Below, in pieces: positions 28,970 through 62,053 of a stretch of 64,000 nt of DNA (position 1 is the first letter of the stretch; every line of letters begins with the position of its first letter). The DNA lies in assembly GCF_964355755.1 (NCBI RefSeq), contig NC_092673.1:8804001-8868000 (forward strand). Reading direction: 5' to 3'. The notes below the pieces were generated by a model, which did not search any database, had not been told where the DNA came from, and saw nothing but the letters and a program-made list of their open reading frames with translations. The position numbers and the translations under genes were made by a program. Source of the DNA: Antedon mediterranea. Lineage: Eukaryota; Animalia; Echinodermata.

Positions 28970-29088
28970 AATTAATTAATTATATTCACTATAATATCTC
29001 TATGGTCTAGTCTAGTAGAAAAAATTCCAAAAATATCAGAAGTTTGCTTTCCGTACACTATATTAAAGTATCATAACATACATATAAC

Positions 29089-32090: not shown

Positions 32091-32267
32091 TATATATATA
32101 TATATATATGTATATGTGTGTGTTTATATGTATGTATGTTACAACTGACTAACTTTATCAATTGATTCATAGTTATACATAAAGAGACTCTGTTTTGAGC
32201 AGTTTAAAATTACATTTTACGCTTAAGCACGTTACTTACTATACCTCAATTTTTCTAAACTCTTAAT

Positions 32268-35200: not shown

Positions 35201-35337
35201 TAACTAAAATGAAACATAACATTCGCTATAGTGGTTCTAAACTATTCAATAATCTACTTCCCGAAATTTCATCATCGTCTTCTAGCAAAATGTTCTCTTT
35301 TAAACTTAAAGAATATCTTATTTCAAATTATAACTAA
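32268..35337 (+). pseudogene. LINE ORF2 (APE endonuclease + reverse transcriptase), frameshift near 35020
   Basis: HFNARSL, VTETW, IYRP, ILGDFNIDLL, TLIDNIF, TDHLPVF; NYRPISIL, FIDLSKAFDT, GVPQGSLLGPLLFLIYINDL, YADDT; C-terminus continues in frame 34822-35337. Confidence 0.93.
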
Positions 35338-37162: not shown

Positions 37163-37793
37163 ACGGAGGTTCATCAACTGTATGTACATTCTGAACAAAT
37201 CTTTGAAAAAATCAACTCTAGCATTAGCGGTTTTTGAGATATGGCAACTCTGTCATTTCATTCAATAAATCGCAAGTCACAAGTTATTTAACAGATGTTC
37301 AATTTATTCATTTATCATTTATTCAGAAATATAAATATTTACATTGTAAACATGGATTTTACAGAGACAATTAAAATTGTCTGCAGGGTTTGATTTTTAT
37401 ATTTATTTTGTGTGTGTGTTACCGCTGCGTCGGTCCTGTTTTTGGTACCATGAAATATGAAATTAATAAAAAAAAATTAAAAAAATTGTCTGTAGTCGTA
37501 AAACCCTTTAGAAAAGACAAATATTATCACAAACAAAAAAAAACTTGAAGAAAATGGTTTTATAGGTAGGCCTACAAGTTGGAAAAAAAATTTGCATATT
37601 TAACTAATTATTTGCATGTCTTCGGGATGAATGCCAGAGGTGTGATCTCCTCATCATATTATATGACTATTTAAAAAAGAAAAATATCTGTTTTGATTTT
37701 GTTTCACTCAAAATGCTAGATTGCCTAGCCTAAATTGACGGTAACTAGTTTTAATATTATTATTTACTTTTTTTATTCAAAAAGGTCAATAAG

Positions 37794-40697
37794 ATGGATA
37801 GCAGAATGCTAAATTTCGTTAAAGGATATGCTGAATCGTTTAAGCGAAGTTATAATACGCGCGTTTTAGCAGATGATACTGAAGTTAAAGAAGCTTACAA
37901 AACAGCACAAGAAACAGGAAAACTGCCTTTTAAGAGAAGCAAGATTCTCATCCTGGGTGATCATGGTGCCGGGAAAACTTCGACATGCAGGCGTTTACAG
38001 GGTAAAAATTTTCGACCAGAGGAGCCTAGTACAATAGGAATAGAAACAAATACTGTTAAGGCAAACGTTAGTGATGTTAATAGTAAATGGTCTGAAGTTA
38101 CCAACACACCAGTAGAAGATTATGAAAGTTCAGCAGCCTGGTGGACAGTATTACATGTGCTCAAACATAATAAAAATAAAGATTTCAAGAAAAGTATTAC
38201 GTCTGAAAAAAATGCAGAAGTGTCGATTCGAAAAGTAATCGAGGATACATTTTACCTTATTTTGTGTATTTTTCCTATGATGATTATGCTCTGTTTCGGT
38301 GGGTTTATATTCGGGTTCGGTCCATTCGTATGGTTATACATCCTTTGTCTTATGACAATATGTGATGTTCACAGTGCTTATCGCTTTGGTTGTGGATATG
38401 CTATTTGTATGGTACTCGTAGATAGTGCTACACAATTGAATGAACAGAGCATTGAGATAAACTTATGGATGTTTGTGTCTGCCTTTATGATTGTTGGTAT
38501 GTATGGGTTAGGTTCGTTCTTTGTTGGTGCGCTTATTGCCGCAGGTTGCAGAACTGGTATCTGTGTAGGTTTTTGCCTCATGGTACATCCAAAGCATACC
38601 TCTATTTCTTTTGAAATTATTTTAGAAAATGTTTCTAAGCTTTTTTCCAGTAGTAGAGAATATTTTGAAATCTTTATCTACGCGGTTATAATATTGGTCA
38701 TGTTTAGAAGCATTTACACTAAACTATTTCTAATAAAACGTAGATTTATTATTGTGTTCATACTTATCATAATATTTATATCCGCAGCTAAATATTTCGA
38801 AAGACATAGTTTTGGTGACATATGTACTCTATTTTGCTTAATTTCCATTGTTTTTTCAATATTGATTGGGACTATATTAGGACGACAATTTGTGGCTTTT
38901 GGATATTTACCTGAAAATTACTTTTTAAAGAAATCTGTTGGATTTATAACTGGAATATGTTTAACAAAAATATGTGGTTGGAAAATGTTAAATGTCAACA
39001 ATCTTGTGTTATTAGACAACACACGTTCTCTTACAAGGTATTTATTTCAATTATTTTCATTTTTTGCACCAATCACTGCGTTTGTTATCTACGAATGTTG
39101 TTCATATATAAAAGTAATAAAAACTACGTCATCGATACCAATAATGCATATCAGAAAAGCAATGAAAGCAGATATACGAAAAAAATGCTACATCGATGCC
39201 AGATTCAGTTTATGGGATTTTGCCGGCCAAGAAATGTATTATAATACACATCATCTATTTATGCCAAAGCAAGGTGTATACTTGGTTGTTTTCAACGCTG
39301 CCAAAGCAATTTCTGATCCTTATAGACATATTAAGCGGCTACAGTTCTGGTTACAATCTATTGCTATGCATGCAGATATTGAAAATGTCGTAGTATTTCT
39401 TGTAGGTACAAGGCGAGAAAGTATATGTGATACAAACGTGTTTTCAGCTTTTGAGAAATTGTTAAATGCACATATTTACAAAAGGTTTTCAAGATTGCTT
39501 GCCTTTCATCCAAAAGGTGGACTTTGTTTTTTTATTGAAAACGCTCTTAGTGATGATAAAGAGTGTAACCTATTACGAGAAATTATATACAAGGAGGTGC
39601 AACTTCTAAAGTACTTCTGTGAAACATTTTCTGTTAAATATCTTTTATTTAAAGAAATACTAAACGGACTACGCTGTAGAAATTGTGTTATTGCAAGTAT
39701 AAACGATATCGAAAATGAAATAATTTCAAAAATCAATGTATTTAAAAAATATGATTTGCGTAAAATTCTGAATTGCTTTGACAAATCTGGAGATATCATA
39801 TACAACGAACACGATGAATGGCTTCGGAACTATATTGTGTGTGATCCACAAGTACTAATAGACATTCTGAAATTACTAGTAAATGTGCCAGAACCACATC
39901 AAAGAAATCGAACTGTATCGGATCTTTGGCAGAGATTGCTGGAAACCGGAATTATTGACAGTAGATTAGTGGAACATATTTGTCGAATGAAAGGAATTTG
40001 GAGAGTTTATCCTTATGTGATTCGTTTTTTGGTTGAAACACATCTACTTTTTCCACTTACAATTACTAACGAAATTGATCAAGTTGGGACATTTTACCTT
40101 TGCAGCCGATTGCCGGAAACTGAGTTACAAACTAGTAAATGTATCTGTGTTATAGACTTGTACGAAATATTTTATTTTGACTTTGGTGAAATTTTACTTG
40201 AATATATCTTTCTTCGTCTTATTGCCAAGTGTTGCAAGATGTTTAATTGGATTAATATCTACTATAATGCTGCAAAATTTAGAGCAAGTGAATCATGTCT
40301 CTTTCAGATAAACACGGAAACAATTTCTGCTGGCAGCATTTTCTTTTATGATAGAAATCTCATCAAACTTTCAGTTACTAAAGTAGACCCGAATCAATCT
40401 GTAAATATTCTACACAAAATTACTACTTTCATAGAAGAAATTGTTCAACAGACTTTCAGTCCTGATTACGTTCATGAGCAGTTTGTTTGTGGTCCAGTGT
40501 GTGAAAGATGTAGTTCTTTAGATGGCACATTGTGTTTGGTGAACATCGTTACTATTATTAAGGACGTCTCCGCAATTGACGAATATAGAACAGATGATTA
40601 CCACACGATTTCGTTGAAATCAAAGGTAACCACATTACTCACCCGGTTCCAAGTACTGTATCTAGATTTCTCCAGTATGTATCATAGAAATATTTGA
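37794..40697 (+). CDS. ROCO-family Roc-COR GTPase with a multi-pass transmembrane insertion inside the Roc domain
   Basis: G1 GDHGAGKT (aa55-62), G2 STIGI (aa79-83), G3 WDFAGQEMYYNTHHLF (aa474 on), G4 LVGTRRE, G5 FFIEN, COR-like YIVCDPQVLIDILKLL; aa153-438 strongly hydrophobic; uninterrupted 967-codon ORF; in-frame acceptor at 37784 and donor at 40626 suggest extra exons. Confidence 0.9.
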   Translation: MDSRMLNFVKGYAESFKRSYNTRVLADDTEVKEAYKTAQETGKLPFKRSKILILGDHGAGKTSTCRRLQGKNFRPEEPSTIGIETNTVKANVSDVNSKWSEVTNTPVEDYESSAAWWTVLHVLKHNKNKDFKKSITSEKNAEVSIRKVIEDTFYLILCIFPMMIMLCFGGFIFGFGPFVWLYILCLMTICDVHSAYRFGCGYAICMVLVDSATQLNEQSIEINLWMFVSAFMIVGMYGLGSFFVGALIAAGCRTGICVGFCLMVHPKHTSISFEIILENVSKLFSSSREYFEIFIYAVIILVMFRSIYTKLFLIKRRFIIVFILIIIFISAAKYFERHSFGDICTLFCLISIVFSILIGTILGRQFVAFGYLPENYFLKKSVGFITGICLTKICGWKMLNVNNLVLLDNTRSLTRYLFQLFSFFAPITAFVIYECCSYIKVIKTTSSIPIMHIRKAMKADIRKKCYIDARFSLWDFAGQEMYYNTHHLFMPKQGVYLVVFNAAKAISDPYRHIKRLQFWLQSIAMHADIENVVVFLVGTRRESICDTNVFSAFEKLLNAHIYKRFSRLLAFHPKGGLCFFIENALSDDKECNLLREIIYKEVQLLKYFCETFSVKYLLFKEILNGLRCRNCVIASINDIENEIISKINVFKKYDLRKILNCFDKSGDIIYNEHDEWLRNYIVCDPQVLIDILKLLVNVPEPHQRNRTVSDLWQRLLETGIIDSRLVEHICRMKGIWRVYPYVIRFLVETHLLFPLTITNEIDQVGTFYLCSRLPETELQTSKCICVIDLYEIFYFDFGEILLEYIFLRLIAKCCKMFNWINIYYNAAKFRASESCLFQINTETISAGSIFFYDRNLIKLSVTKVDPNQSVNILHKITTFIEEIVQQTFSPDYVHEQFVCGPVCERCSSLDGTLCLVNIVTIIKDVSAIDEYRTDDYHTISLKSKVTTLLTRFQVLYLDFSSMYHRNI

Positions 40698-40979
40698 TAA
40701 TACGCATCTGTGTTTCACATGTATCTCCTAGTATAAAACACCATAACCTAACCTTTAACCTAACCTCACATTATACAGCCACCACATGTGATACAAATGA
40801 GACACTGTATTACCAAATACTGGGCACATGTAATAGTATGTGGAGATATAGCACTGGAGATCGAGTATATTACTGATATTGTACGCAAGGAGTGAAATCC
40901 GATAAAATAACTAGGAGGGAAGTTTTGAAGTTTATAATTGATATGCGTTAAAAATGTATTTATTTTACTCTTCTTACAG

Positions 40980-41069
40980 TTTAATCTTGTATGCAATAGA
41001 CCAATGAACAATGATGATGATAATCAAATTGGAGTGGAATTTGGCGATAAAGAAGTATTGATTGATTGA
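40980..41069 (+). CDS. Possible short terminal exon of the ROCO gene (FNLVCNRPMNNDDDNQIGVEFGDKEVLID*)
   Basis: Phase-0 donor AAG|GTAACC at 40625/6 and strong acceptor TTTTACTCTTCTTACAG at 40979; open for 29 codons. Confidence 0.4.
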   Translation, partial: FNLVCNRPMNNDDDNQIGVEFGDKEVLID

Positions 41070-41737
41070 TTGACTTTATTTTGTATTATGGATTACCAAT
41101 TAGTTCTATATCACAATTAAGTGGACGACTTATTTAAATAGGGATCAGAAAAAGATATTAGTACAGTTTTTTAACAGAAAAAGGTGAGACTTTAAATAGT
41201 AAAAAAATACACTTAGGCCTATGTTTATTTTTTGTATAAACACATAATACAATTATACTAATTTGTTTAATTGTTCAATATTCAAAAATGTCTTTCAATT
41301 TTACTTTGAAATTATAATTATTTTTAATTGATTTAAGTGAATTTTTTTTAATCACAAATAAAAGTAAAGGTCGAGGTAGGCCTATTAACTCCTGTTATGA
41401 GTAACATAATTCAAATATGTATTCCTGATGAAGATCAGATATTCTTAGACATTTTTTATTCAGAATAGATTTATTGAATTATTTTGTACATAATTTTATA
41501 TTATAAAAGTATTTTCGAGACTGACATTAAGTAATCCAATATAGCTCTTTGGTACCGATGAGAAAGCATACATTTAAAATAAAGTGTGCCATTTTATTTT
41601 AGTAATTCGTAATTTATGTTTAAGACTCTGTTTACACCGACATGATGAATGCTCCTGGAAAAACAGAATACTGTATAATGTAAACACTAAAAACAAATTA
41701 AACAAGAAATATTTCTTACAAAAAACGATGCTCGCTT

Positions 41738-42795
41738 ATTGACGTAACAGTTTTAAAGATATAGTGTCACGTAAAATTGCACAACGTATTATTAAAGCTG
41801 ATCTAACGCCTTGTTCATTTATCTATGAAAAGAGTATTTAAAAAAAAGTAAACAATATTATGAAAGCCCCCACTCATCCGTTACATTACTGTTATAACTT
41901 AAATAGATCAGGCATTAGGCTACGACCTCCAAGAGCAAATCTTTGTAGAACTAGAAAATCCTTCGTTGTAAATAGCATTCATAGTTTTAATTCTAATGTA
42001 AGACGTTAATGCAATTTTTAATAGTTTTACATTTTTAACAGTATTTTTAACTTTTTATCTTGTATTTTTAATCTGTTATAATACTGCACGCATTGTTGCA
42101 ATATTGTTGTTTTAATCTACCAAGCAAAGTGAATTTCCATTTTTATGGACAAATAAAATTTCTTGAATCTTGAATCTTGAATCCCTCTGGAAAATATTTT
42201 CTACAGTATTTCCAATTTGTTTTTGAATGTGTCATTTTATTGTCACATAATAGTTATTTTACCTGGAAAAAATGTAATTTAAAACAAAAAATACTTAAAT
42301 TGTCTGTCAGACAATGGTTTTTGGGTTATAATTAAACGTTTCTTTTCTCTTTTTATACGTGAATAAATAAATATTATTTTAATAATAATGTTGATATAAA
42401 ACACAGACTCAATTTCTGTCACTTCAATTTATTTTATTGCTAAGGTCAAGTCTGGGGTCACTTCATCACGCCTAGATACTTCAAGTGTGAAGTATCCTAT
42501 TACAAACAAAAACTGGACTGTTTTGATAATAATTCAATGATTATCTGACAGCGAATTACAGTATTTTAGTCCAATACCAGAAATGCTTTGGGATTTGTAA
42601 TTTTAGCATGACATTTCCTAATAGACTCTTTTCCCAGACGTTTTTTGGGTCCAGCAGCTGGGACCTATATATTATAGTCGAGTATGCATTTTAGCAAAAA
42701 CGTCAATTTCTAGTACTATAGCTGCTGCTTGATTTCATCTAAAAAATGAGTTATCTCTTGTGACGTAGCGGCCTAGAGCAGCAGCGTGAAAAATC
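41738..42795 (+). repeat. Copy 2 of the ~500-bp direct repeat, interrupted by a LINE 3' fragment
   Basis: Collinear with 29089-29590 once 41770-42181 is removed. Confidence 0.85.
41770..42181 (+). mobile_element. Short 3' fragment of a Rex1/L2-type LINE with (CTTGAAT)n tail
   Basis: KIAQRII..IYEKSI..PTHPL..RSGIRLRPPRA..RTRKSF; AATAAA followed by tandem tail. Confidence 0.75.
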
Positions 42796-42818
42796 TCAGA
42801 ATAACTAGGTTTTCTGCT

Positions 42819-42828
42819 GGGAATTTCC
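42819..42828 (+). promoter_or_regulatory. Perfect NF-kB consensus site GGGAATTTCC, ~2.7 kb upstream of deaminase-like paralog 1
   Basis: Exact match to GGGRNWYYCC; function untested. Confidence 0.25.
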
Positions 42829-43349
42829 AGTTTTTTTATATAAAATTTTTATAAACCGGATATTATCATTTAAATAACTTCTGCTTGGTTGATTGTGAAC
42901 TTGATAATTTTATACCTACTGTGCGAAATAAAAACAAACTTCATCGAAACAGGATTTTATCATCTTAGTTCACTCACAGATTTAGTGTGTAGGCACAATT
43001 ATATTCTAAGTAGGCCTGTAACACTACATTCAATTACTATTTTTAATTGTACTCTTATAAATACTACAGAATATGGCTTTTTTAAACTATGGTAGGCTTA
43101 ATACTACAAGCTCCAATACGATGACGACACGCGTCTACGTGGCTACTTCCTAAACATGTTCATAAAGTAATAAATAGAAGCAACTCTTTAATTTTAAATA
43201 CGTCTTCTTCCAATTAAGAACCACTTTTGGACCCAGGATTTAGAGTGGACTCAGGTTGGTTTGTCTGTCCTGTCCATTTGTGTGTATTTCAAAAACTGTA
43301 GGCCTAGTATTTATTTGTCTGTAATTTTAATTGGTTGCTCTAAACTTAA

Positions 43350-43894
43350 AGATGTATTGTCCCTTGAAACACAAAAAAATGAAGGTCAAAATATTCTAAA
43401 TTTAAATTGGCCATATCAAAGTAATATTAAAGTTATTCACTTTAAGTCGAAAATTCGAGCCAAAAACAACAAGTTTACGTAATTAACAGGTAAATTGATT
43501 TGATTACATTTCGTCTGGAAAATCGTCGCGAGCGAAAGTAAACAAAGATTTCAAACCACGAGTAGGCCTACGCATTATGCGTATGCTAATTAGGATTGTT
43601 TACAACTCGTCACGGTTGAGAAGGTATTTTTACACAGATCGTGAGGAAGTTTTATGATTATGCATACAGAGTAGCGAAACAAGCGCGTTTCATTATGAGA
43701 TATGTTTTGATTGAAAACTTTGACTGGAAGTCAATGTTATTTTTTTAACAAAAAAACGTCTGTATTTCAGTTAAATGATTTTTTTTTAAACACATTTTTG
43801 GTGATAGTTAATAACTATTATGATATTTCAAAATTTTTTTCGAAATCTGTTATTTTTTATTTTTTTTGGAATTAGTCAAAGGGACAATACATCT
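43350..43894. mobile_element. Kolobok-like MITE
   Basis: TIR AGATGTATTGTCCCTT with TTAA on both sides (43346-49, 43895-98) and AG..CT termini. Confidence 0.85.
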
Positions 43895-45506
43895 TTAAAA
43901 TACATCGAAAAGTAAAGTGATCTTTAATTAAATGTATAATTCGATAGAGAATGTTCATATAGGCGATCACCCGGGGTCACGGTACAGTAGTCTTTAATAT
44001 AATTTGCTTAATTTCTTTATATCTGTCATTTACATGATAAAACTTTCATAACAGTATTGATTTTAAAAGATATGTTGTTTTTTTTATTTTTGTGCTATAG
44101 ATATGCATATTGCAATGTAATGCTATAGAGTTTTAATCTAAGAATCAACTTTATATCACATTTAGGTCACCAATCACCAAAACGTCCAGTAAGAAATTAA
44201 TCAGATTTTCATGACTATTAGGATCAATTAGATCTATTCCTGTATATTCGTGTGTATATTCGTGTGTATACCCCTGTATATTATCTGGTGATAGTATTAT
44301 TAAGCACGAATATGAATAAAGAACTCTGATATTGCGACCAAGTGAGTCTAAAACCTTCGCACATTATATTACAACATTTTGTTTATGTTTTGCATGTTTT
44401 TATCAAATCCAAAAAAACGAGTTTGCTATGTTGGATTACAAATACCGAATATGCTACAGTTATGTATATTCGCACTGTAATGGATCGGAAAGCTTCCGAA
44501 GTTTCTTATATCTACATTATTGGTGGCGCAATATATTGCATTGCATTGCTATTGTTCACTACTGGTATTCGCGGGCGTATTTGCATATCAGGTGAATGAC
44601 TATATTGAATAGGCTGCGTGAGCGTTGCTTCTGCAGAAGTTGTTTTAGTTGTTGTAAGACATGTTATATACTGTATTTTTTTTAATTGTGGATTCTCGCC
44701 AATACTGTGAGTAGATATTTTCTATACAACCATAATGTTTTACAGTATTACTATATGTGCGTAACGACAATGAATTCACTGTTTAATAATTTCTGTTTGA
44801 TATACAGCTTTGTCTTATTAGATAGCATACATGTTGAAGTTAGTTGTATAACATACCATGTTGAAGTTAATTGGATAACTTACCAGGTTGACGTGATTAG
44901 TAGTATGAAATTGGTGTATTGGATCCAGGTACAAGTTCGTTCAATGTGAGCAATACTAATTGATAATTAGTGAAGTGACCATATTGTAGTAAGCTTGCTT
45001 GTGATTGTTTTTATTGTTGAATTATATTACACTGCTGATACATAATAATTATGACGTTGTTTTATACAGGGTTTGTTCCTGTTTAGAAAAATAAACGATA
45101 CAGAGTAAATACAGCCTCATCTTGCGTATTGTTTTGTTGCATGGGATACATGGCTTCACAAACCAAACCTTAATGGTCTAAACCTAGCAAATCAATATTA
45201 AGGATTCCCGAACCACGACAGCACCTTATAATACGACACTCTTTGAATTGATACAAAGCGTCTATATTCTGTTTTTATTACAAGGGGTTTTTAATTGGGG
45301 GAAACGGAAAGAAGATACAATCAATAACCCAACGTATGTGAATCTATACCGGAACAGTAGACCTAACCTTATATTGAAGTATAAGAAGAACATACGATCA
45401 TTTAGGGCTGTAGACCCATTTGTACCGCTGATAGTGTAGTACGCCGCTTCTGTTGACGAAACACAAAAGATATACTGTGCACAAATAGTTTTAAGTATTG
45501 AATGAC

Positions 45507-47053
45507 ATGGAATTTGTTTGGCGTAGAGCTTTCATAGCTTCCTTGCTCCTATTTATCAAGTTTGTTACTGGTCAAGTTTTAGACGAGGATATTCGATGTA
45601 TAACAAGCAAGATCACAAAAATTGCAGAAACATATAATCGTTACTTCAACGACGGCCCTGAACAAATCTCAGTTCTTGCTGTCTTGCCTGAGGAAGACAC
45701 ACCTTTCTGGTGCAACAATACCTACTTGGAAAGAACATTTAAGTCTTCTGTGAACACATTAGGGTTTGTAGTTCCCGAAAACTTAAATTATGCGGTGCCA
45801 AGTTTAGCTTCTGATGTTTTTAATTACATATCAGCTATTCCTTATGTCGACAATGACATTGTTCAATCAGACCTAAAACTGTTACTGAAGTTTCCAGAGA
45901 GGATCAAGGCAATGGTAGATTGGTATCATTTAGATGAAACCGCAAAAGCACCTGTGTTTTTCTTATACACCTGGAAATACCCATGTATTAGTTGCACTGA
46001 TATGATTTTGGACGTTCTTAATACTGAAATATACCAAACAATTCCTCTCATAATAACATTCACCGACTGGGGCCATACAGACCCGGATGTAAATATCATA
46101 GAAAGTGAGAATAGGTTGGAGGTAGCTGCCATCCAAAGACCTCTATCTGCAACAATTACACGTATGAGGTACGAATACACAACAGATGCAAGTTATTATT
46201 TTGATTTGTTTCAGCACGTTATATTTGATAAATTTTACCGTACGGGTGTGCCTCGACAACAAGGTGATCAGATACAGTTTGCCGTTTTAACCATTTTGCC
46301 ATTGCATGATAAAGAGAAGTGGTCAACTCCTGACTACGCCGAAGAAGTACTGCGGCCACTGACGGCACGAGGTCGCGTGTTAACGCTACAAGTAAACGAT
46401 CGTCTAGCTCCATCAGAAATCAGCGAAAGTGACAATTTTGTAGTCGCACGCGGAGTAACTGAAAACACTGATACTGCTCAGACATATGCACTCCGTGGTG
46501 AAAGTACAGACGGAAATAACATAGCGTTACTTCTTAATAACCATGAACGCATACATGGATTGGAGACACCAACTGTTATTGCTCTTTATTCGTGGACTTG
46601 TTTCCATGATGATGTCACTTTACAAGAATCAGCAACAATACTTGAACTGTATGTACGACAACCAGACATATACAGGGTCATTTATGGTTGTTCTTCAGAA
46701 ATATCTGGCGATGATTTTGAAACAACACGATCAACGTTTGACAATATTGATGTAAAAGCGTTTTTTGTACGAGAAACGTTTCCTGAAGACGTTATTCAAC
46801 CTGTAAACGAACCCCCGTTTGAAGATCATGAATCCGCCGCTGATATGCGCCCGTTACCGCCAGGAGGCGATCAAAGAATATGTCGGGTTAAAAGAGCACT
46901 TGATGAAAATCTTCAGTACAACTCTTTCCAGAATTGTGCGTTCCAATGTTTGGTGAATGAATATGAGTGCGGCAGATTTTGCTGCTGTTGTGGAAACAAC
47001 CTGATTACAGAAACTACAGCGTACTTGGTTAACAGCATAACATCTGATTGCAG
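45507..47053 (+). CDS. Secreted tandem AID/APOBEC(SNAD)-like deaminase-fold protein, paralog 1 (large first coding exon)
   Basis: Signal peptide MEFVWRRAFIASLLLFIKFVTG; QISVLAVLP..NYISAIP..QSDLKLL..FFLYTWKYPCISC; second repeat QFAVLTILP..NFVVARG..IALYSWTC; RVKR; Cys-rich tail; ORF stop lies inside donor AG|GTAAGT. The coding call is firm (paralog conservation), the fold call moderate. Confidence 0.8.
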
Positions 47054-48269
47054 GTAAGTAACAGTTCAGACTATACTTATTAACTTATTATACCACCGCA
47101 AAGTTCTAGAAATCCCTAGAATTTAACGGTTGCCCATTGTCCGAGTGGACGGTGACGGAAACACCATGTCGTGCGAAAATGTCTATTAATGCAATTTATA
47201 AATACTGTAGGCCATCATTGTTCTCTCTAAACGATCAATGACATAGAAATGAACCATATAGAGCTTACAATGTTTCGGATTGTTTACTCTTAGTCTTCAT
47301 TTGATTGTCCTGCATGCCCTTTAATACAGTGTCGACTTTAGTTATTGGTTTGGAGGCACCAGGTTTTTATTATTAACATTGTACGAGGTATCACAGTCTA
47401 TCTAAAATGTTATATTTATATTTTCACTTGTACTCTTAACCTCCTTATAATTACTCTTAACAACGTTATTTATTGTATGTTCAGTGACCATTATTAGTTA
47501 GACATTCCTCATATTCGGAACTGTGGACACATCTTCGTCCGTTTCTTTAGCTTTTTTACACTATTTTTTAATTTCCTTCTACTGTAGGTTTACGACTTGT
47601 AGGCAGAGTATCTCTTTTATCAGTAATACGGCACTTCACAGTAGTTTAAAATGGACATCTGGGCCACATTTCGGCTCATAGCATGAAGACGGGCAATGTT
47701 TACGACCACATTTATTCGTTTTACCAGTCGATAGACCTACCCATATACCCATTATTGCATAGCATTAATGTTTAATTTTACAACAGTACTAGGTTTGGTC
47801 TAAGGTTCATATGTCTTCACAAGGTTTATACAGGAATTTATTGTTAGTTTTGGCTCCTGCAACTATTCCTTCAGGATATCCTCATCTCGTAGTCCACAAA
47901 CTATTTTATCCAGCATACTCTCATCTTTGAGACTTCCGAACTTACCATTTTTGCTTTCGTAGACGAATTAGGGAACATGCAAAGTCTTCACCTTCCTGTT
48001 CAGATTCTCTATATGGAATTGAGAATTGGTACCTTTTATATTGGTTTTTCAACATCAGTAGGATTTTCGAGCTTGTATAAACTTGCATCGTTAGCGATGG
48101 AAAACACCTTTGTAATTCGATAAAGGATTCTGGTGGTGAGAGGATGCTGCATTACCCATACGGGGAATGCAACCTCTGACCTACTGATTTTGATTTTGGA
48201 AGTGAATTTTGGCATAGTGTATGTACTCACATATTTTGGTCATGTATGTGGCATCGTTGTTTAGACTAA

Positions 48270-48887
48270 AGGCCAATTTACACAGACGAGCGGTAACGGT
48301 AAGCGGTAAAGTTGAGCGGAAAACGCAAAAATAGAATCTATGTTATTTCTTATGACCATTTACACAGAACGCGGAGCGGACGAGCGGTTGAGCGGAAATC
48401 CGCTCAGGATCGAAACAGATTCGATTTTGTGAAAATACCGCGCGGTAATTATGGATTCTTGCCAACCAACGACATGATTGAAATGACGTCATCTATCAAC
48501 AAATTTTTTTTGCGTCCGTCGAGTGAAAGACGACAATAAATACGAGTGCCGTAGTAGGCCTAGCCTATAGTTTCTTTTTCTTTTTATTCAGCACCTACGA
48601 CGTGACTAATGTTCGTATAGGCCTAAGGATAGTGAAAAGAAAATATACATTTTAGTACGTTATTAGGCAACAATTCCCTCTAAAACTTAAGGCTTGTGTG
48701 TGCTAGGCCTACTGACAGTCAGTCACATCCAGGCCAGCAGTAACATGCATTAGCCTCGAGGCCTACACGCACCTACTTTCCACCACTCTGTTTGCGAACT
48801 CCGCGCGCTGTGTAAATGGGAAAAGCTACGCGGTTTTTCGCTTACAAATACCGCTTACCGTTACCGCTCGTCTGTGTAAATTGGCCT
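48270..48887. mobile_element. PIF/Harbinger-like MITE
   Basis: ~39-bp perfect TIR AGGCCAATTTACACAGACGAGCGGTAACGGTAAGCGGTA; TAA/TTA flanks. Confidence 0.85.
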
Positions 48888-51042
48888 TTATGCATCTCTG
48901 TCTGACCGTTTAGTTTTATCAATTATGAACTTGTCTTGATAAAAACATAAATAATAAAACTCGTCCTAAATATGAAAACCTAACCCTCTAAATAATCTCT
49001 CTCAAACTAAAAAAAAATATTTTAAAAAAATGTTCAAGTAGAGAATTGATCCTACAACCCCCTTGGCCATAGCCTCAATAAATACAAGCCCACTGAGCCA
49101 TCCAGCTCGTGGATCCAATCGGGTTTTACTTTGTATATGCATGAATAAAACATATATTATACGTAAGCATTTTAACCGACAAATCAGCATGATCATTTTG
49201 AACTTTGAACTTTGTTTGGTTGACTCTCCGTACATCCCAATACTTCCGAAGACGTTCCTTCCGAAGACATGTCGAAGATGTCGTTCTTTGTGACGTCACA
49301 AGTACTTTAAAAAAAAACATAAAATTCACATTTTGGCTCAGATATATACTGTTTCGTATGTTTTTCTTGAAACCATTCTAAGGCGTTCCATGCGATACAA
49401 TGTCAAAATGGCTACAGCATACATATCTGGCGCATTTTAGGTCATTTTTAGGTCACCTGATTTTCACTACGAAAGTATTAAGTGTGTGCCGTTAAAGCTA
49501 TAAAGGTGTTCTTCCACAAGTTCGTGATAAATATAATAATTTATATATATATACATATATATAAATCCAAAGGCAAATTACTAAAAAAAATGACAATGCT
49601 GTGGGTATCAGTGGCTGGATCTCAATGGAGATACAAAAATAAAAAGCAAAAAGCTAAATCAAAACGATAAAGTAAACAGCCAGAAAAGTTAGCAGAGCTT
49701 TCGGGCAACACTAGCCATCAGTGCAAGTGAGGGAATTTGCACTTATCTACATTTATAGAAAAACATTAAAAGAAAGAATTTATAAAATAATACAGCATTA
49801 GGCTTCCTGAATAAATATGTTTGCAATTTCTTTTTTAAATACGTTCAGAGATTGTGGCATCTTGTTGATATCAATATTATGTTTATTCCAGGTTATAACC
49901 CCCCTATAAGAAATACTACGTTTTTTATACTCAGTGCGAGGTTTTAGGAACATAGAGGTTTGTATCATTATGTCTGAAGTTATATTTGAAATTATTTTGT
50001 TTGATAGAATTGATAGATATGTGGGTGCACGCCCCATCATAACTTTAAAAATTACCATGCAACATTTATACTCATCTTTAGTTGAGAGGGTAAGCCAATT
50101 TACTCGCTGAAAGTGCATCTTTACATGGTGTGTCCCAAGATATGCCAAATATGATTCGGGCTGTTCTATTTTGTACAGGTTGTACTCTTTTTAGAAAGCT
50201 CGAACCACAATTACCCCAGATTACACTAGGCCTACAGTAAGTTAAATGTGGAATAATAATAATAGAATTTGAAATATTTCTTAATATATTATTTAGAAAA
50301 ATGTGTCTACATCGTTTAAGCATACCTAAACCTTTTAGAGCCTTCGCACGAGTAGGCTATATTCAATATGGTATTTCCAGCTTTCATCAGTGTTTACACC
50401 AAGATGTATGTGGACAGAACGTTCTCTGTTTTTCAATTTTGGAGAGTTTTTGACTTGATCCTATTAGCATAAATTCTGATTTTAAGATGTTAAGACTTAG
50501 TTTGTTATTCTTCAGCCAATCAAATGTGTTCAAGCTCATAGTGTATTGTTTGATAAATTTCATTTTCATTTTCTGATGCATAATATACAATAGTGTCGTC
50601 TGCATACCTACTAATTTTACACTTGTGGCATTTATAATATACATAGGGAAAGCCAAGGGGCCGCCGATTGAGCCCTGGGCCACCCCGCATTTGATGACCG
50701 TACGTACGTTCAGATAACATGTCATTGGCATTTGTGAATTGGGATCTTTCAGAAAGGTAACTTTAAATCACTGTATTGTATAATCTTAATTTACTCAATA
50801 ATATGTGATGGTTTACCGTATCAAATGCTTTTTTGAAATCAAGCATGCACATACCGACAATTCTGCCCTCATCAATTTCACTGTACCAATTTTCAGTAAT
50901 GTTGGCAAGTGCTGTGGATGTAGAGTACGATGGACGAAAACCAGATTGATTTACATATATTAGGTTATAATATTTAAGAGCCATTGTCTGTAAAAAAATG
51001 GATTTCTCTAAAATTTTTACCATGAATAGACATTTCAATAAA

Positions 51043-53470
51043 AAGCATATCTACAACATTCATTTTAATGTTTAGCCTCCGTTACCATGACAACGGTCAA
51101 TTATTCAAATTTTGATGTTTTTGCCATTTTTCACAGATTTCTATAGTGAAAAAGTACAAACTTGTATACTTATTCTAACCAAAAATACTCACAAGGGGTG
51201 TTTTTAAAAAATATTTTTTTTATAAAAGTATACCTCATAAACGTACCTATAACTTCCAAAGTGGTGTTTTTAAATCAATGAGGTTTTTTAATGTGATAGT
51301 CAATAGGTTTGTCAACAATAATCACGAAGGAAAATACGAAAAATACAAAAAAATACAACCAAAATATCAACAAACAAAACACATGAAACACAATTTAAAT
51401 ATGGCTAATCCAATAATAAAATGTATATGTGGCTTGTCATAATGCTACTAGAGTCATACGAATAGTTTAGATAAAATAGGAGAATGTCTTGCCAGGTTTA
51501 TTTCAATTAATTGCCAGAAAACAGTATTTTGCATTGAAATATTTAGTTGATGGAAAATAATGTTAAACTTTGAAATAATTGCGTCAATGGTTTTTATAAA
51601 TGTTTAAATCTATTTTGTGTACAGAGATGCAGAAAGACCTCCCTAAAAATCTGACCCTGTAAATAGGTCATTTGAGGTCAAAAGGGGTCAGAATGCAAAA
51701 CAGGACAGGTCCCCACTTTACTACAACTATTAATGTTTGATCGAAATTTACAAGATAGTTCATAAAAATTCTCAACAATTTTCATTTTTTACCTATAGTG
51801 TTACCTTAGCAACCATTTATATGTGTAACTAAAGAAAGTAATTTAAAAAAAACGTAAAAATGGCGTTTTTATGAATACAAAGAATTGAATGCATTTGTAA
51901 TTTTTCTCAATTTTACTTCTACTGCATTCTATTAATCTTAAAGTGAGGACAAACTTGACCTTGTAAATTCATTCATTTTGAGGTCAAATGAGGTCAACAT
52001 TTTACCATAGTAACTGTTTCTATGCGAAAATATTTTTAAAATAAGGGGTTTTTCATAAATACAAAACATTTTTTCTACATAGTTTACATTTCTTCTTTTT
52101 GCCAAATTTACTTTAAATACTGAATCCTAATCTCAGAAAAAAAGTCTTGACAAATCTGAATAAAGGTAAAAAATTTACCTTTAGTGTTATCTTAAACCTG
52201 TTTACGTAACTAAGGAAATTTTTTTTTAAATAAAATATGGAATTATATTTTACATATTGAGGTCAAATGACATCAACATTTTACCTATAGTGTATTGTAG
52301 CAACTGTTTCTATACGTAACTAAGTACAATATTTTTAATATGGGGTTTCATGACTACAAACAATTGATTACATAGCTTTACTACTTTTTCCCAAATTTAC
52401 TTATCTACTGAATCTCAGAAAATGTCTGTCGGACCTTGTGAAAGGGTCATTTGTTGGGTCAAATTATGTCAAAATGTATTATTTATGTTATCTTAGAACC
52501 TGATTCTTTGCGTAACTAAGGATAATTGTTTTTTAAATACAGTTGAACCTCCCGTAAGTGGCCACCCTCGAGACCTGGAAAAGTGGCCGCTTAACGGGTG
52601 GTGACCCCTTACGGGAGGTTCTGCCGATAAAGGGCCAAAATCACGTATTATGGCTATATACGATATTCTTAACGAAACGACCCTCTCAATTTTCCAGCTA
52701 ATTGTAGGCCTATTATTATTTATAATCAGGTGGTTTAGTATTTTTTAGCATTTTCAGACAAATTTTAAAAGCTTTTATCATATGAAAAATGGTCGGTCAA
52801 AATCTGTGTAGTTTTCTCATCTCTTCACAGTAATGTTTTTAAAACCTCTTCAAAATAAAGCTAATATATAAAGAAATACACTAAACATGGACCTCTAATT
52901 CATAGGTCCATGCAATAAGTATCACATTTTTCGATTGGCCGCTTACAAAAAATCTCATTTTTAGTATAAAAAGGTGCCCGCAGCTGCTTACGGTAAGCAC
53001 CAAATGCACTAACTAGATAGGAAGAACAAACGGGCTTTTCAAAGTGCGTCCGTTAAGGGAGGTGGCCGCTTACAGGAGGTGCCCGCTGTAAATAAAATAT
53101 AGGGTTGTCATGAATAAAAATAATCACAGAAGAAAGTGACCTTGTGAAACGGTAATTTGAAAATGCAAATAAGGCATGCCTGCTAATAATCTACAAATTT
53201 AAATTTGTATAATATAAATATGCAAAATCTAAAGAATATCTCAATTTTAGTTACCATAGTAACTGTTTCTATGCATAACTAAGAGAAATTAAATAATTAT
53301 CAGATAATTAATAATTAATACTGAATCCAACCATCACAGTAAAAAAAATATAGAATTTAAAACCAATATTTATTAATAAAGTGTGATATTTTACATGCTG
53401 ACCTTAAATGAAATGAAATTTCACATCAGGGCTTCAATATTTGCTGGGTAGCATTAACATACCTGAGTAT
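51043..53470. repeat. Unclassified AT-rich element with ~6 degenerate internal repeat units (..CATAGTAACTGTTTCTATGCGTAACTAAG..)
   Basis: Unit recurs near 51790, 52005, 52180, 52285, 52485, 53255; interrupts the LINE between APE and RT. Confidence 0.5.
52540..53090. mobile_element. Tc1/mariner-pogo-like MITE
   Basis: TA-CAGTTGAACCTCCCGTAAGTGGCCACC start; GGTGGCCGCTTAC.GGAGGT repeats at the right end; second copy at 36.6-37.2 kb. Confidence 0.7.
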
Positions 53471-53837
53471 ATCATTGACTTTTGGGGGAAGGTGGTGGAT
53501 CCAGGAGTTTGAAATAGTTAGGGGATTGGAGGCGAGCGTCTAAAAACTTAACTTTATGTCCTATCTTTAGCATCTTTAACTTGGGGTGGGTGGGGGCTTG
53601 GAGAAAGGGGGAGGGGTGGGATGGAGGAGTTTGAATCCGTCTATTTGTTGGGGCGATGCTAGCGGCAGTGTGGGTAGTGCTTGAATACATGAATTTGACA
53701 CTGTATAGTGGATGATCGACCAAAGTGTTACTGTTTATCTTTTTGTGGTTATTGTCGGAGTAGGAGGAGGGGGATTGTAGTCGAAAGTGGTGGTGGATGG
53801 GCATGTGGGATCTGCTTAGATTAGCAAATAAAAGAAG

Positions 53838-54105
53838 TTTTCGTTTGAACGAATTACTAATTTGTTCAAACAGATTAGTAGTTTGAACGAATTAGTAATC
53901 CGTTTAAACAAATTAGTAATTCGTTTGAACGGATTAGTAATCCGTTTGAACAAATTATTAATCCGTTTAAACAAATTAGTAATTTGTTTGAACGGATTAG
54001 TAATCCGTTCAAACGAATTACAACATATACTTTAAATGGCACTTGTTGTATATGTTGTAATTCGTTTGAACGAATTAGTAATTCGTTTGAACGGATTACG
54101 TTCGA
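53838..54105. repeat. ~22-bp minisatellite (TTAGTAAT(T/C)CGTTTGAAC(G/A)AA)n
   Basis: About 10 degenerate copies read directly. Confidence 0.85.
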
Positions 54106-54974
54106 AAAACATATACTTAAAATGGCATTAATGGGCTTTCGTACTTTTCTTATTTGATGGTATGATATGTCTTATTACATTCCATGTTTTTTTAACATCG
54201 TTTTTATTTTCGTTTATTTTGTCTTTAATCAAATCTGACTTACTTTTTAAAATCATTTGTTGCATGCATTTCGACATTTACGGTATTTTTGTGTTTGATC
54301 ATTAGATATATTACATTTTTTTTTAAATTTATCTCGTTCTGGCATCTTGTTAATAATATCTTTACCAAGCCATGGAGCCGTTTTCTTCCATATTCTATGT
54401 TTTTTCATAGGAGCATGTTTATCAATTACATTTATAAGGTGATTTTCAAGTAGTGAGCACTTTCGTTCACATTTTCACTATGTATAGTTTCATTCTAATT
54501 TATATTTTGGAGATCAGAGATAAAGTCATTTTAATTAAATCTTTTAAAATTTCGAACAAATTTGTACTTGTGTTCCTGTTTATTTACCGTGTCATGATTT
54601 ATTCGTTTTCCCAATATAGCGTATGTCATGGAGTGGTCACCGAGACCAGCATGTATAACGCCAGATTGAAACGTTGGTAAAGAACATTACATCAATAAGC
54701 GTTAAACTATCTTTAGTTATACGAGTAGGTTCATGTATGACGGGCTCAAGTTGAAAGTTCGTAGTAATTCATTTAATCTTTTGGTGTAACAATGTGGTTC
54801 GGTAGATAGGAGGTCGCAGTTTAGATCCCCCATCAACATGAACTCTTTCTTTTCTAATTCAGTTGAACGTAAAATATTTTGTAGGTGGTCAAAAAGACAA
54901 GTAGTTGAATTTGGTGGTCGATACCATAATTTTATTAAAAGGGGTTTACATTTATTGCGCGTAATTTCAACAGA

Positions 54975-55062
54975 TATAAGTTCAAGTTCAGCACACATAG
55001 GTCATAAGTTCAAGTTCAGCACACATTAGGTCATAAGTTCAAGTTCAGCACACATAGGTCAT
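54975..55062. repeat. 27-28-bp tandem triplication ATAAGTTCAAGTTCAGCACACATAGGTC inside the LINE endonuclease
   Basis: Three copies read directly. Confidence 0.85.
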
Positions 55063-55934
55063 TCCTTATTCTATGTGCGGTATTTTGATTTACGTAAATC
55101 GCAACGCCACCCCGTGTTTTGTTTTGACGATCACGCCTGTATATTACATAATCATCAACTAGGAATTCCTGATCATTGAAGGTGTTATTTAAAAACGTTT
55201 CACTTAAACCAAAAACATCGACATTAATTTAATTTAAAATATGTTGCATCTCATCAAAATGCATTGGTAGACCACAGGTATTTGCATGGGCTATAATGAA
55301 ACCCTTTCGCTTCAATGCTTTAAAAACATCATTATCAATATTATTTACGTTTATGTTTCCTATATCATTTTCGTTTTCTATAAAATGTATTTCAAAGTTA
55401 TTTCAAAATGTATTCGTGATCTCACCATCAAATTGATGATTTGCATCGTTATGAGTAAATCAATTTGGATTAAAATAATATTTATCATCATAAAAATCTG
55501 AATCTAAAAAATGTACATTATTTACACAGTATCTGGCCTTATGTCCCATTTCTCCAAATGATCTACATACCAGGCCTTCATTGTAGTAACATTCATTAGT
55601 GCGGTGATTTGACAGTCCACACAGCAAGTTTTATTTGTCAAGTTTTTGTTTTGATGTCGTCCATTGTTTCGTAGTTGATGTGCATTCCTTACTGGCATGT
55701 GCGTGTTGTTTCTGTTTTGTCGTTGTCTTTGTTGATTTCTATGTGCATTGCTGTGTTTGTTTTTCATCTGTCGCCATGCCAGCTTCTTTTCCAAGTCAAG
55801 ATCTATGGAAGGGATGGCATTTTTTTTAACAATTTACTAGTTTCGCCGATCCAGCCGATGATAGGCGAAGAGCACCAGTCGAGATTGAGCTATCTATCGA
55901 TCCGCATTTATAGGTACAAGTTGGCGATATATCA

Positions 55935-57942
55935 TTCATTCATTTTCATTCATAATGGTATATTTATTAAAATCATCTTTACAGAAAAACTGAATTGTGA
56001 CCATTTTTTACATTATTAAAAGGTACTTAAAATATTAAAAATGTTTTAAAAAGATAGCATAAAATAACATCAACCACAAAATACATCATATAAAAATATT
56101 AAAATAAAGGAGCACAACATCAAAACAAGTAAAAATCTAAATGACTGGCCAAGTGATTTGAAAAAAAATTACCTAACATATTATATTTGATTCTTATTAC
56201 TTCAACATTATATTATACAGAGGGATAACATTATTTTCAATAAAGAAGTAAAATCAGTTGCGGTTCCACTGCCTAATCATGTATTGAATGGAGCTGTTAC
56301 AATATCTGACAGTCCGGCAAACAGGGACAGTAAGTTTGTTTGCGCTTCGTAGATCTCTGAGACTCAAACCTAACTGAGTGGAATACACTCATCTTGGCTA
56401 GAAATTAACGAGGCAAAAAATTTGCTACAAATTTCATTACGACGTACATTTAACTGTATAAAGCTCGCTTTTGGATTCGCTCTAACATATTCGATTCAAG
56501 TCGGGTAAGACCAGAATGCCACACAGGAGCAGCGTATTCAGTTAAGGGTCTGACATACCCAGTGTAAATAGTTAATAAGTCAACAATTGGCATTTTTAAT
56601 CGCTTAAGTACTTTCAACATATATAATCTACCATTAGCTTTGCTAAGCACTTTAGTGATATGAGAGCTCCTTTTAAGATCAGAACTAATGTTAACGCCTA
56701 AGATTGTAGTATTATTCACAATGTGCAACGGCTGTCCATCAATGTTGACAACAATGATTAACATTTTCTCTAGAGAAATTTACACTCATAACTAAACATA
56801 ATGTTTCATATTATTAACTGTCGTCCATTGCGATAGTTCGTTTAAGTGGTTTTGCATAAATCTAGGTTGCTTAATTGCAAAGACGGGGTTCAACAATGGT
56901 AATATCATCAACATACTTAAATACGTCAATCGTCTTATCGTAAAAACATCATTAACCATGGCAAGGAAGCAGAGGGATCCTAGGCTGGTACCTTGAGGGA
57001 CACCTCCATTTACTAATGGTGTATAGATATTTAACACATTGTGTTCTATCACTTAGAAAACTCATAATCCATGTAATTACAGATGGACGGACTTGAAATT
57101 TAATCAACTTACAGATTAATACATTGTGGTCAAAAGCTTTTTTAAAATCAGTAACCACTACAGTACTTTCACTTTGTTTCTTATCAGCATTTCTATAGAG
57201 AACATCCATAAGCTTAACATGAAACTTTTTGCAATTTTTGCAAAGTGGTCAGTGAGGGAAATTGGTCTAAGTTTATCCCAAGTTCGTAGGATTAGTTTTA
57301 GGAATAGGGATAACCATGGCTCTTTTCCATTGGGATGGGACAACACCATTACCAAAGGACTGATTTATGATTGCAGCCAAAGGTTTGATAATTTCATATG
57401 CAAATTCCTTAATTAATTTGGCAGGCAAACCATCAGGACCAGATGCTTTCTTGGTCTTAATATTTTTAAGTGCACTATAAACTTCATAATTTTAGACAAC
57501 TGGGTCTGGGTTAGGATACGGACAAAAGGCCGGAAGTTCCTCCCTTACAAGGGGTTGGACTTCATTGGTAATATTAACAAAATTATTATTGATAAAGTTA
57601 GCAAAATCTTTAGAATTACTAATATTTAAGTCATCTGGAATGTTAATAGTAGAGTTAGCTTTCCCTTGATTGGTCATGATTCGAATCTGCTTGTACACCT
57701 GTGCCGGGTTAGCCTTTTTATGTCTCTGAACTCGGTTCGCATAATAATCAGCCTTGGCTTTTCAATTTCTGATTTTACTTTGTTCTTTAATATTTTCCAA
57801 TTCACCGAGTGGAGGTCGTCATGAAATGCCTTCTGGCGATCACAAATCAACGTTTTCACGTAAGGTGTCATCCAAGGTTTGTCTTCACTGTGCAGTTTAA
57901 TAGTCTTGGTTGGAAAGAAGTAAGTATTTATCGCGTTCGCTA
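55935..57942 (-). mobile_element. 5'-truncated LINE (RT) inserted into the host LINE esterase, with 8-bp TSD
   Basis: DKPWMTP, LRPISLT, DFKKAFD, GVPQGTSLG, EYAAPVWH..LERIQKRAL; (ATGA)n tail at 55935-55952; ATATATCA at 55927-34 and 57943-50. Confidence 0.88.
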
Positions 57943-58735
57943 ATATATCAATAAAAGCACAGTCCAGTCTCTTTGATAATTCCTCTAAGCGTTTGTTTAA
58001 CATCTCTACCTCCTCCATATTTGTGTTCCTTGGACATACCGCTGATATGTAAATTGATATCTTTGGTTCTCTAATCATAATGAATGTGATGGCGTGTTCC
58101 ACTTCCAATACGATTAATTCAATATCTTTTCCATTTGATATGTCATTCGTTCCTCTGTGTATGATGATATTTGAGTGTTTTTTTAAATCAGTATTTTCTT
58201 TTAGTTCATCCGTTATACCATTTATAGTAGCGCCTCGTTTCACAATTACATCGGTGTGTGATGACAATTTTCAAAATCACGAAGAATGGAGTCACCAATA
58301 ATCAGAGATTTACATCCATCATTTGATTCGGTTTCTACTGTATTTGGTTTTGACATTTCAATGTGAGGTCGCTTACCTTAATACTCATTTCGCTCAGTTT
58401 TGTCTTTAGTTTCTTGTTCTCCTCTTCTAGTATGTTTTTTTTATTTTTCCTTGTTCCTTATTCATTTCGTTTATTGTTGATTGCAGTGTACCAATACTCT
58501 CACTAAGGTTCTTTATGATGTAGGAGAGTTCCTGTTTACAGCTATCACACGTCCATTTTGATTTTTTAGCTGGTTCCTTTTTTAATTTCAGGCAAGCAAT
58601 ATGATAATCTCTGGAACAGAAAGCACATCCAACAACAGTACCAGTATCCCTTATGCAGCTTTCAAGGCACAAACTATCATCCGGTGGTGGTTGATTAGTT
58701 GGTGGTTGATTAGTTGGTGGTTTATCCATTTGCTT

Positions 58736-61592: not shown

Positions 61593-62053
61593 GATTTTAT
61601 GTATGACTCATGTGAACAAAGTGATTGGTCAAACTTGATGATATCACATTGCAGACTTATTTATTTTGTTTACTGGGGCTAGTGATCTAGGAGTGGATCT
61701 GCTGTATACGACTGGAAATCAATATTTGTTACATACAGATAAATTTTATATTATTTGAACGCTTTCAACGACCTTCATACATAAGAAAATTATGACAACA
61801 ATAACAATGTTCAAACCTCGTGGTGTATCAACTTTGTCATTCGTTTCTGGTTTTCTGATAACTATTCCAATTGAGGAAAGGTGGGTATTAGATAATGAAT
61901 TGCCAGCGGTTGTTATGAAGCCAGACCGGAACAATAATTAACGATACATAGTAAAGGTCATTTTCTAGGTTAGTTTCGGTCAGTTGTTACTAGATCACAG
62001 TTGATATAATTTACCTGGGTAATAACTGCTGTGTACCTTTGTTATATCAAAAT

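Follow-up and report, generated by a model that had tools for sequence, protein, structure and literature searches.

A predicted exported protein with two AID/APOBEC-like domains and a replaced catalytic motif, encoded in two copies at a locus of Antedon mediterranea

What does a protein with the fold of a mutator enzyme do when it carries a predicted signal peptide and has lost its catalytic residues? This question is raised by a locus in a 64,000-nucleotide stretch of Antedon mediterranea DNA (contig NC_092673.1, positions 8,804,001 to 8,868,000; AT-rich, about 33% GC), which is referred to here as the window and whose first letter is position 1. On the plus strand, an open frame (copy 1) extends from the ATG at 45507 to 47053 and encodes a signal-peptide-like leader followed by two domains resembling AID/APOBEC-like deaminases (AADs), related to the SNAD families. 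A second frame of the same architecture (copy 2) is located at 62054-63633 (+; coding 62054-63627, QSD motif 62450-62458, splice donor 63628-63633) and would be either a tandem paralog or an alternative first exon. Both frames exceed 500 codons, the proteins are 80% identical, and a QSD motif and a PCxxC motif are present in both. The reading favored here, with somewhat more belief than doubt, is that of a non-catalytic, protease-processed extracellular recognition protein of the secretory pathway, probably acting in defence.

The sequence motifs reported in an earlier note on this DNA were all recovered on the plus strand. Repeat 1 contains QISVLAVLP (45663-45689), NYISAIP (45822-45842), QSDLKLL (45864-45884), FFLYTWKYPCISC (45957-45995), and LIITFTDW (46047-46070), and repeat 2 contains QFAVLTILP (46275-46301), NFVVARG (46434-46454), GNNIALLL (46512-46535), VIALYSWTCF (46575-46604), and RVIYG (46674-46688). 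An out-of-frame ATG in a weak context is located five bases 5' of the start codon (45502-45504, +); letter 45503 differs in contigs from organisms B and C, where this ATG is absent. Pieces of both copies were found in contigs from three organism labels. No third AAD-like frame was detected in the window, where only the two copies scored (next E 0.44). Close relatives of the whole protein were absent from protein libraries in a word-index search (single protein, 283-903 amino acids (aa)), and the same type of search with aa 40-230 against proteins of 30-282 aa found no homolog; proteins longer than 903 aa were covered by the representative search described below. Among JGI metagenome contigs, 127 pattern matches were obtained and none was confirmed.

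Domain 1 (45573-46184, +; aa 23-226) was recognized by profile searches, a structural model, and fold searches. A profile built from the two copies was compared to 1.84 billion representative proteins and returned five matches (E 9.5e-5 to 2.5e-4), all on repeat 1. All five are deaminases with HxE and PCxxC that match deaminase families weakly, and four of them resemble SNAD1, one above the cut-off. When six relatives were aligned with the two first domains and used as the query, 78 proteins were retrieved. The resulting set comprised 83 relatives after one same-cluster duplicate (P0008) was dropped, all of them single-domain proteins with H[AS]E and the Cys pair; alignment A5 consists of 75 rows, including 73 of these relatives. 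AAD sequence homology extends across strands 1-4 (52.7 bits for domain 1), and domain 1 retains 22 of the 47 columns conserved in the family, among them N106, Y107, P112, Y154, W156, P159, C160, and C163. In loop 7, W188 lies one column away from the family Trp (present in 68/73 relatives). The A5 profile compared to PDB sequences returned two weak, unrelated rows. Comparison of the A5 and A6 profiles is circular, as the same 73 relatives are in both, and served only to view registers. The ESM Atlas, used as a lead only, placed an unnamed cluster first for both halves of the protein (0.89 and 0.85), with SNAD1/2 clusters in second and third place at 0.85 for the first half and clusters of APOBEC type coming next for the second half. 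This unnamed cluster (216 aa, 67 members, all eukaryotic) has molluscs as the most common group among the 11 members with a known phylum, and it may hold the closest relatives.

Domain 1 was modeled using the 75-row alignment (predicted local distance difference test (pLDDT) 70, predicted template modeling score (pTM) 0.69). Its elements are E32-37, E84-87, H98-104, E127-132, H138-148, E158-164, H172-187, and E194-200 (E, strand; H, helix), corresponding to a five-stranded alpha/beta deaminase fold with helix 4 before strand 5, an outcome that leans on the deaminase alignment. All 38 rows listed by Foldseek for this model were AID/APOBEC entries. The VIA-align results were led by deaminase-superfamily chains, with Z values of 8.3 to 7.0 for the first ten and a best root-mean-square deviation of 3.1 over 117 residues. 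Together with the profile matches, these searches bear out the AID/APOBEC-like fold that had been proposed for the protein.

Within domain 1, the H-x-E position is occupied by QSD (Q120-S121-D122; 45864-45872, +), as placed by alignment A5 and by the model, in which helix 2 begins at S121 and helix 3 after C160. This arrangement is the active-site layout described by Krishnan et al. (2018, PMC5889660). The A5 column of Q120 is His in 73/73 relatives and that of D122 is Glu in 73/73. From QSD through the next helix, the sequence aligns without gaps with relative P0085, and HHalign and the hidden Markov model (HMM) alignments of copy 1 concur on this register. The Cys pair is kept as PCISC (C160, C163; 45981-45995, +) in copy 1 and PCSSC in copy 2, and the PCx2-4C pattern before helix 3 is found in domain 1 only. 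Thus, the claims that QSD lies on the HxE helix, that it replaces HxE in both paralogs, and that PCxxC is retained are all upheld. Neither H-x-E nor C-x-E occurs anywhere in the protein, and the three DxE motifs (268, 403, 440) are away from the site. A contig of the same organism that covers QSD has 0 deviating letters, and its three codons carry two silent differences between the copies; QSD is therefore not an assembly error. Both changes, Gln for His and Asp for Glu, are conservative single-base steps. H141, in HLDE, was weighed as a possible shifted zinc ligand but set aside, as in this fold it would lie where strand 3 begins, at a distance from the site.

Domain 2 (46185-46790, +; aa 227-428) is a degenerate AID/APOBEC-like repeat that was recognized through profiles and the ESM Atlas lead. 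A profile of the domain 1 matches also finds aa 237-364 with 16.1 bits, a score reached by 0 of 2000 shuffles (best 9.3; 1437 scored at all); the profile seeds were found through domain 1 only, and the repeat 2 match is beyond chance. A profile of 81 domains scored repeat 2 at 20.7 bits in copy 1 and 13.5 bits in copy 2, and HHalign of repeat 1 against repeat 2 gave P 9e-6. Plain BLASTP between the halves yielded weak local matches only, and the repeat is visible through profiles alone. The match is firm through strand 3 and beyond that point depends on the multiple alignment. By its sequence, then, domain 2 shares AAD homology, and the internal repeat suspected earlier is real. The domain has no H or E in either possible register (the HxE site reads TAQ or GNN, depending on the register), a single Cys (C365), and no loop-7 aromatic residue, so that the reported loss of zinc ligands from repeat 2 is also upheld. 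Trees, which used the unnamed relatives only, left both domains unplaced, and one origin of domains 1 and 2 was neither shown nor rejected (approximately unbiased test, p-AU 0.53). The stem branches to the two domains measured 6.6 and 8.8 changes per column, compared to a median end branch of 0.56, and such very long stems would fit a change of function. In deaminases, a His and two Cys hold zinc and a Glu shuttles the proton (Majewska et al. 2024, PMC11004436). Because the zinc His and the proton-shuttling Glu are replaced in domain 1 and lost in domain 2, neither domain should deaminate, and the protein is predicted to be a dead enzyme.

The ratio of nonsynonymous to synonymous substitution rates (dN/dS) between the copies was 0.23 over aa 53-516. 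By region, it was 0.18 for the residues surrounding the pseudo-site, 0.19 for domain 2, 0 for the linker, and 0.13 for the tail. Fisher p values ranged from 2e-3 to 2e-12, with those for the set made up of the overall comparison, pseudo-site, domain 2, and tail including 3e-4, 2e-12, and 4e-6. All 15 Cys of the mature part are common to both copies (15/15). Judged from these codon comparisons, both copies are maintained under purifying selection, and neither looks decayed. Tracts with near-zero silent difference at 46023-46112 (aa 173-202) and 46473-46652 (aa 323-382) lie beside tracts that are near-saturated. This mosaic of silent differences suggests gene conversion between the copies, a process reported for other AAD arrays (PMC5889660).

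A cleavable signal peptide is predicted at 45507-45572 (+; aa 1-22) from its pattern and hydropathy, with the cut after FVTG (FVSG in copy 2). The best 11-residue hydropathy of the leader is 2.5 and 3.4 in the two copies, and no later segment of the exon exceeds 1.2 over 19 residues. The protein is therefore likely to enter the secretory pathway. One N-glycosylation sequon (N70) is common to both copies. The two domains have isoelectric points (pI) of 4.5 and 4.6, whereas 81 related domains have a median of 7.8 (range 5.2-9.6), and the mature part contains 40 K+R against 74 D+E; this strong acidity of both domains argues against binding of a nucleic acid strand. Domain 2 is followed by a Pro- and acid-rich linker (46791-46883, +), and aa 429-461 are identical in both copies (33/33) with four silent changes. 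The cleavage consensus of furin is R-x-K/R-R, and the sole such site in each protein directly follows the linker (RVKR, 46884-46895, +; RVRR in copy 2). The remaining Cys-rich segment (46896-47053, +; pI 4.1) has 8 Cys in the pattern C-x3-C-x6-C-x3-CCCC-x19-C, is probably incomplete, and gave no Pfam match and no credible PDB match.

The earlier note had given the span 45507-47053 for the protein. The open frame is real, but its end at the stop TAA (47055-47057) is unlikely, as this apparent stop lies inside a splice donor, AG|GTAAGT (47052-47059, +). The last codons read ...TGC AG|GTAAGT in copy 1 and in copy 2, giving a phase-2 donor in both. The donor 8-mer occurs three times on the plus strand of the window, compared to 1.2 expected, with two of the occurrences at the copy ends, and the DNA likeness of the copies stops at 47059, the last donor base. 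A contig of 3658 letters from run X9 (organism B) fits 45418-47053 (+) with 52 deviating letters and then continues for 2024 unlike letters that have no placement within 37500-49500, whereas organism B DNA (run X6) continues past the donor to 47346. Another X9 contig skips a GT-AG intron (40626-40979) of the neighboring Roc gene in frame, and run X9 therefore behaves as RNA. A spliced transcript is the simplest reading of the contig that leaves at 47053, and both transcription in a related organism and splicing at 47053 are strongly indicated, on the evidence of one contig of one run that gives neither strand nor level. By this account, copy 1 has a large first exon (45418-47053, +), coding from the ATG at 45507 and ending in phase 2, with 45418 being the contig start and not a mapped transcription start. 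Run X5 had been guessed to be RNA; its coverage extends over intergenic DNA and across the donor, and it was rejected as expression evidence.

A further exon is likely to follow. None was identified within 47060-61990, where plus-strand open frames reach at most 142 aa and the longer of them face frames resembling long interspersed nuclear elements (LINEs). X9 depth is zero at 47124-47925, and 40 weak acceptor candidates are present between 49.5 kb and copy 2. A strong acceptor at 47589 (+31 residues) was tried as exon 2 and rejected, as it falls within the region lacking X9 depth and the contig would match two letters further. A plus-strand frame with a hydrophobic stretch (55675-56019) lies opposite a LINE-like frame and was not accepted. 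The next exon may add a few residues and a 3' untranslated region (UTR), or it may lie beyond the window, in which case copy 2 would be within an intron of copy 1. Because the gene is likely spliced at 47053, a protein called secreted by the earlier note may instead be membrane-bound; entry into the secretory pathway stands by pattern in both copies.

In the favored reading, the signal peptide would be removed after G22, the protein would be N-glycosylated at N70, and disulfide bonds would form. A furin-type protease would then cut at RV[KR]R, yielding a chain with the two domains and a Cys-rich chain, the two possibly remaining joined through C459. The pocket of domain 1 would be near-intact, with Gln and Asp as conservative stand-ins beside the CxxC and the loop-7 Trp, and would hold either zinc or a CxxC disulfide and bind a ligand without turnover. 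Domain 2 would serve as a structural scaffold or as a second binding surface. Given the acidic surface, the ligand would more readily be a small molecule or a basic protein than a strand of DNA or RNA.

Several results weigh against this reading. Pfam and PDB sequence searches with the protein itself gave 0 matches. Foldseek gave 0 matches at E 0.001 (best 3.2e-3, TM score about 0.4), and only 1 VIA-align chain was counted at Z >= 8. The single-sequence AlphaFold model had a pLDDT of 31 and was unusable, and because the domain 1 model was built on an alignment of deaminases and so leans toward a deaminase fold, it supports the sequence result without being independent of it. For domain 2, the fold is predicted from sequence and a language model. 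The HxE register is an alignment result, and one HMM alignment of copy 2 set the motif elsewhere. Occurrence of QSD in copies that are 80% identical is weak evidence of selection on these residues. Purifying selection is not seen over aa 166-225 (dN/dS 1.06, p 0.63), and the suggested gene conversion tracts would blur all of the dN/dS ratios. A match to R-x-K/R-R arises somewhere in about 10% of shuffles, and the part in immunity is drawn from family context.

The site and the tail can also be explained by a precursor, in which the two dead domains form a pro-region (assisting folding or acting as a latency cap) and activity resides in the Cys-rich chain freed at RV[KR]R. Such an explanation accounts for the single R-x-K/R-R at the same place in each protein, with a K/R swap that preserves the consensus, as well as for the 8 Cys after the site, the tail dN/dS of 0.13 at a dS of 0.64, and the unchanged linker in front. 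We consider it unlikely, as both domains are as constrained as the tail, whereas pro-regions usually drift, and the liberated chain would be acidic, probably incomplete, and without a Pfam or PDB family, behind a site that shuffles produce at the frequency given above. About equally unlikely, and compatible with the favored reading, is a cell-surface receptor of which this exon is the ectodomain, with downstream exons adding an anchor and the copies possibly being alternative first exons. Both copies end in the same phase-2 donor, the X9 contig has 2024 extra letters without coverage of 47124-47925, no plus-strand frame longer than 142 aa is present between 47060 and 61990, and the family uses membranes, as 50/83 relatives have an N-terminal membrane-type helix. 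However, the 2024 letters may comprise a few codons followed by a 3' UTR, in the manner of the Roc gene, where the next exon contributes only 29 residues; the acceptor candidates between 49.5 kb and copy 2 are 40 and weak; and a diverged leader and flank for each copy fits separate genes equally. If the missing exons do add a membrane anchor, the result would be a receptor made from a mutator-enzyme fold, which was not found in the literature searched. Protocadherin and UGT1 loci join alternative first exons onto shared exons. By a similar layout, which we regard as a long shot, the copies would be interchangeable first exons (signal peptide plus twin dead AID/APOBEC ectodomain) spliced through the phase-2 donor onto shared exons, producing a family of furin-processed surface receptors; if true, a mutator-enzyme fold would have been turned into a variable ligand-sensing domain of invertebrate immunity.

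Some chemistry could also remain, with Gln120, Cys160, and Cys163 holding zinc and Asp122 acting as a weaker acid/base in slow deamination or another hydrolysis, or with the CxxC serving as a redox pair. Both replacements are conservative single-base steps, 22/47 conserved columns are kept in domain 1, an E. coli cytidine deaminase with Gln for His reportedly still holds zinc, and the human enzyme with Asp for Glu reportedly retains a little activity. Still, activity reportedly falls by orders of magnitude in these single mutants and the protein here has the two changes together, H and E are retained in 83/83 relatives, and domain 2 has taken the same route to full loss, making retained activity quite improbable. 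The same small credence is given to the earlier note's version, in which a secreted protein binds extracellular DNA or RNA or serves as a decoy for it. Decoys and binders have precedent, having been proposed for other inactive AADs (PMC5889660), and the family ancestry and the W188 kept in loop 7 of domain 1 are in its favor; a nucleic acid target is weakened by 40 K+R against 74 D+E and by a domain 2 lacking the loop-7 aromatic, although acidity also occurs among the relatives (pI as low as 5.2), so that charge alone is not decisive. Very unlikely is a role as an inactive partner, one that would switch on or hold back an active secreted deaminase encoded at another locus. ADAT3 is such an inactive partner of ADAT2, and an ADAT2/3 structure is among the top fold matches, which shows the fold only, whereas no other AAD-like frame is present in the window. 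Least probable is a decaying duplicate or an assembly artefact. The setting among transposon remnants and the lack of close relatives in protein libraries would suit it, but it is largely refuted by two frames of more than 500 codons, the dN/dS of 0.23, contigs of three organism labels, and the spliced contig.

Compared to known systems, the ingredients of the protein are each in print as dead, tandem, or secreted AADs, and their combination here was not found in the literature searched. No paper describing a secreted tandem pseudo-deaminase was found in searches that mostly did not extend to subscription journals, and the SNAD alignments S15-S19 of PMC5889660 could show similar inactive or tandem members. 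Secreted AADs have been proposed to mutate pathogen nucleic acids, their function not being established (PMC5889660; PMC13402138), and inactive AADs have been proposed as decoys or binders (Krishnan et al. 2018). The protein descends from SNAD-related enzymes, and we lean slightly toward the view that it works like these inactive AADs. SNAD1 and SNAD2 (PF18744, PF18745) share with it a signal peptide, an AAD core in which an insert follows strand 1, lineage-specific duplicates, and a Cys-rich C-terminal part (PMC5889660; PMC11004436), and 45 of the 75 A5 members reach E 0.01 or better against PF18744. The protein here differs in its two domains rather than one, the absence of HxE, the furin-type site, and the probable spliced continuation. 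The whole proteins and single domains gave no match to PF18744 or PF18745 at E 10. The C---CxxC---C signature at the end of strand 5 (PMC5889660, Table S1 and rows of Fig. S1) is absent from both domains; no Cys is located at this strand end, and the tail pattern C-x3-C-x6-C-x3-CCCC follows about 40 residues further. With respect to SNAD1 features, C69 is present in the loop after strand 1, strand 3 lacks a Cys at its start, and the active-site motif reads Cx2C rather than Cx3C; the SNAD signal peptide is present by pattern and hydropathy in both copies. Two SNAD1 sequences without the zinc motif have been reported (Majewska et al. 2024), and a dead SNAD as such is therefore not new.

The nearest sequence relatives of both domains are P0003-P0086, members of a large and almost entirely unnamed family of single-domain AADs, nearly all from ENA assemblies. 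They share Q-F-A-V in strand 1, P...N-Y-I-V-A-R-P in strand 2, and L-Y-S/T-W-x-x-P-C-x-x-C, and differ in being single-domain with an intact H[AS]E (83/83), at identities of 19-26%. Fifty of the 83 have an N-terminal membrane-type helix, followed in 31 of these by a palmitoylation-like Cys run; P0006 starts with MGQC (lipid-anchor-like), and many of the relatives come from a few long contigs. By these features they look like membrane-anchored, possibly cytosol-facing deaminases, and a description of a membrane AAD family of this type was not found in the literature searched. Among tandem AADs, APOBEC3G has one non-catalytic domain, and the APOBEC3s are intracellular and keep one active domain. 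These proteins (APOBEC3B/D/F/G) and brachiopod LaAIDL1 (Liu et al. 2018, PMC5956068) also have two deaminase domains per chain; here, in contrast, both sites are lost and a signal peptide is present. The inactive AADs of Ciona and Evechinus are likewise catalytically dead invertebrate proteins proposed as decoys or binders, but belong to classical clades and not to the secreted clade (PMC5889660). Secreted dictyosteliid AADs have a signal peptide, a C-terminal Cys domain, and a loop-7 Trp, and are set apart by their occurrence in slime moulds and by a C-terminal domain with four Cys, with no inactive or tandem forms described in the available text (PMC5889660).

An AAD fold that is predicted to be exported, has lost catalysis in both domains, is duplicated, and is under purifying selection would indicate that this fold can be of use extracellularly with no editing involved. 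The protein would then be a natural test of what secreted AADs bind.

The neighboring Roc-COR gene is located at 37794-40625 and 40980-41069 (+). A hydrophobic, probably multi-pass insert of about 300 residues interrupts its GTPase domain, with the P-loop at aa 46-91 and the rest of Roc at aa 463-540; removal of intron 40626-40979 in an X9 contig gives the 29-residue ending. A broken LINE-like element is present at 57674-58966 (-), the first frame of which has PHD-finger and GDSL/SGNH esterase-like matches. LINE remnants were found at 27876-28979, 32259-35337, 49.8-55.8 kb, 56.4-57.8 kb, and 58.7-61.6 kb, and minus-strand remnants fill most of the sequence up to copy 2. A high-copy element with 58-base terminal inverted repeats (48267-48890) resembles a miniature inverted-repeat transposable element (MITE), and part of a very high-copy repeat at about 43.1-43.9 kb is absent from an organism B contig. 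Finally, a short tandem repeat at 1150-1687 (+) is open in two frames (His-rich HAVHT units and MQYTP units) and is probably a minisatellite.

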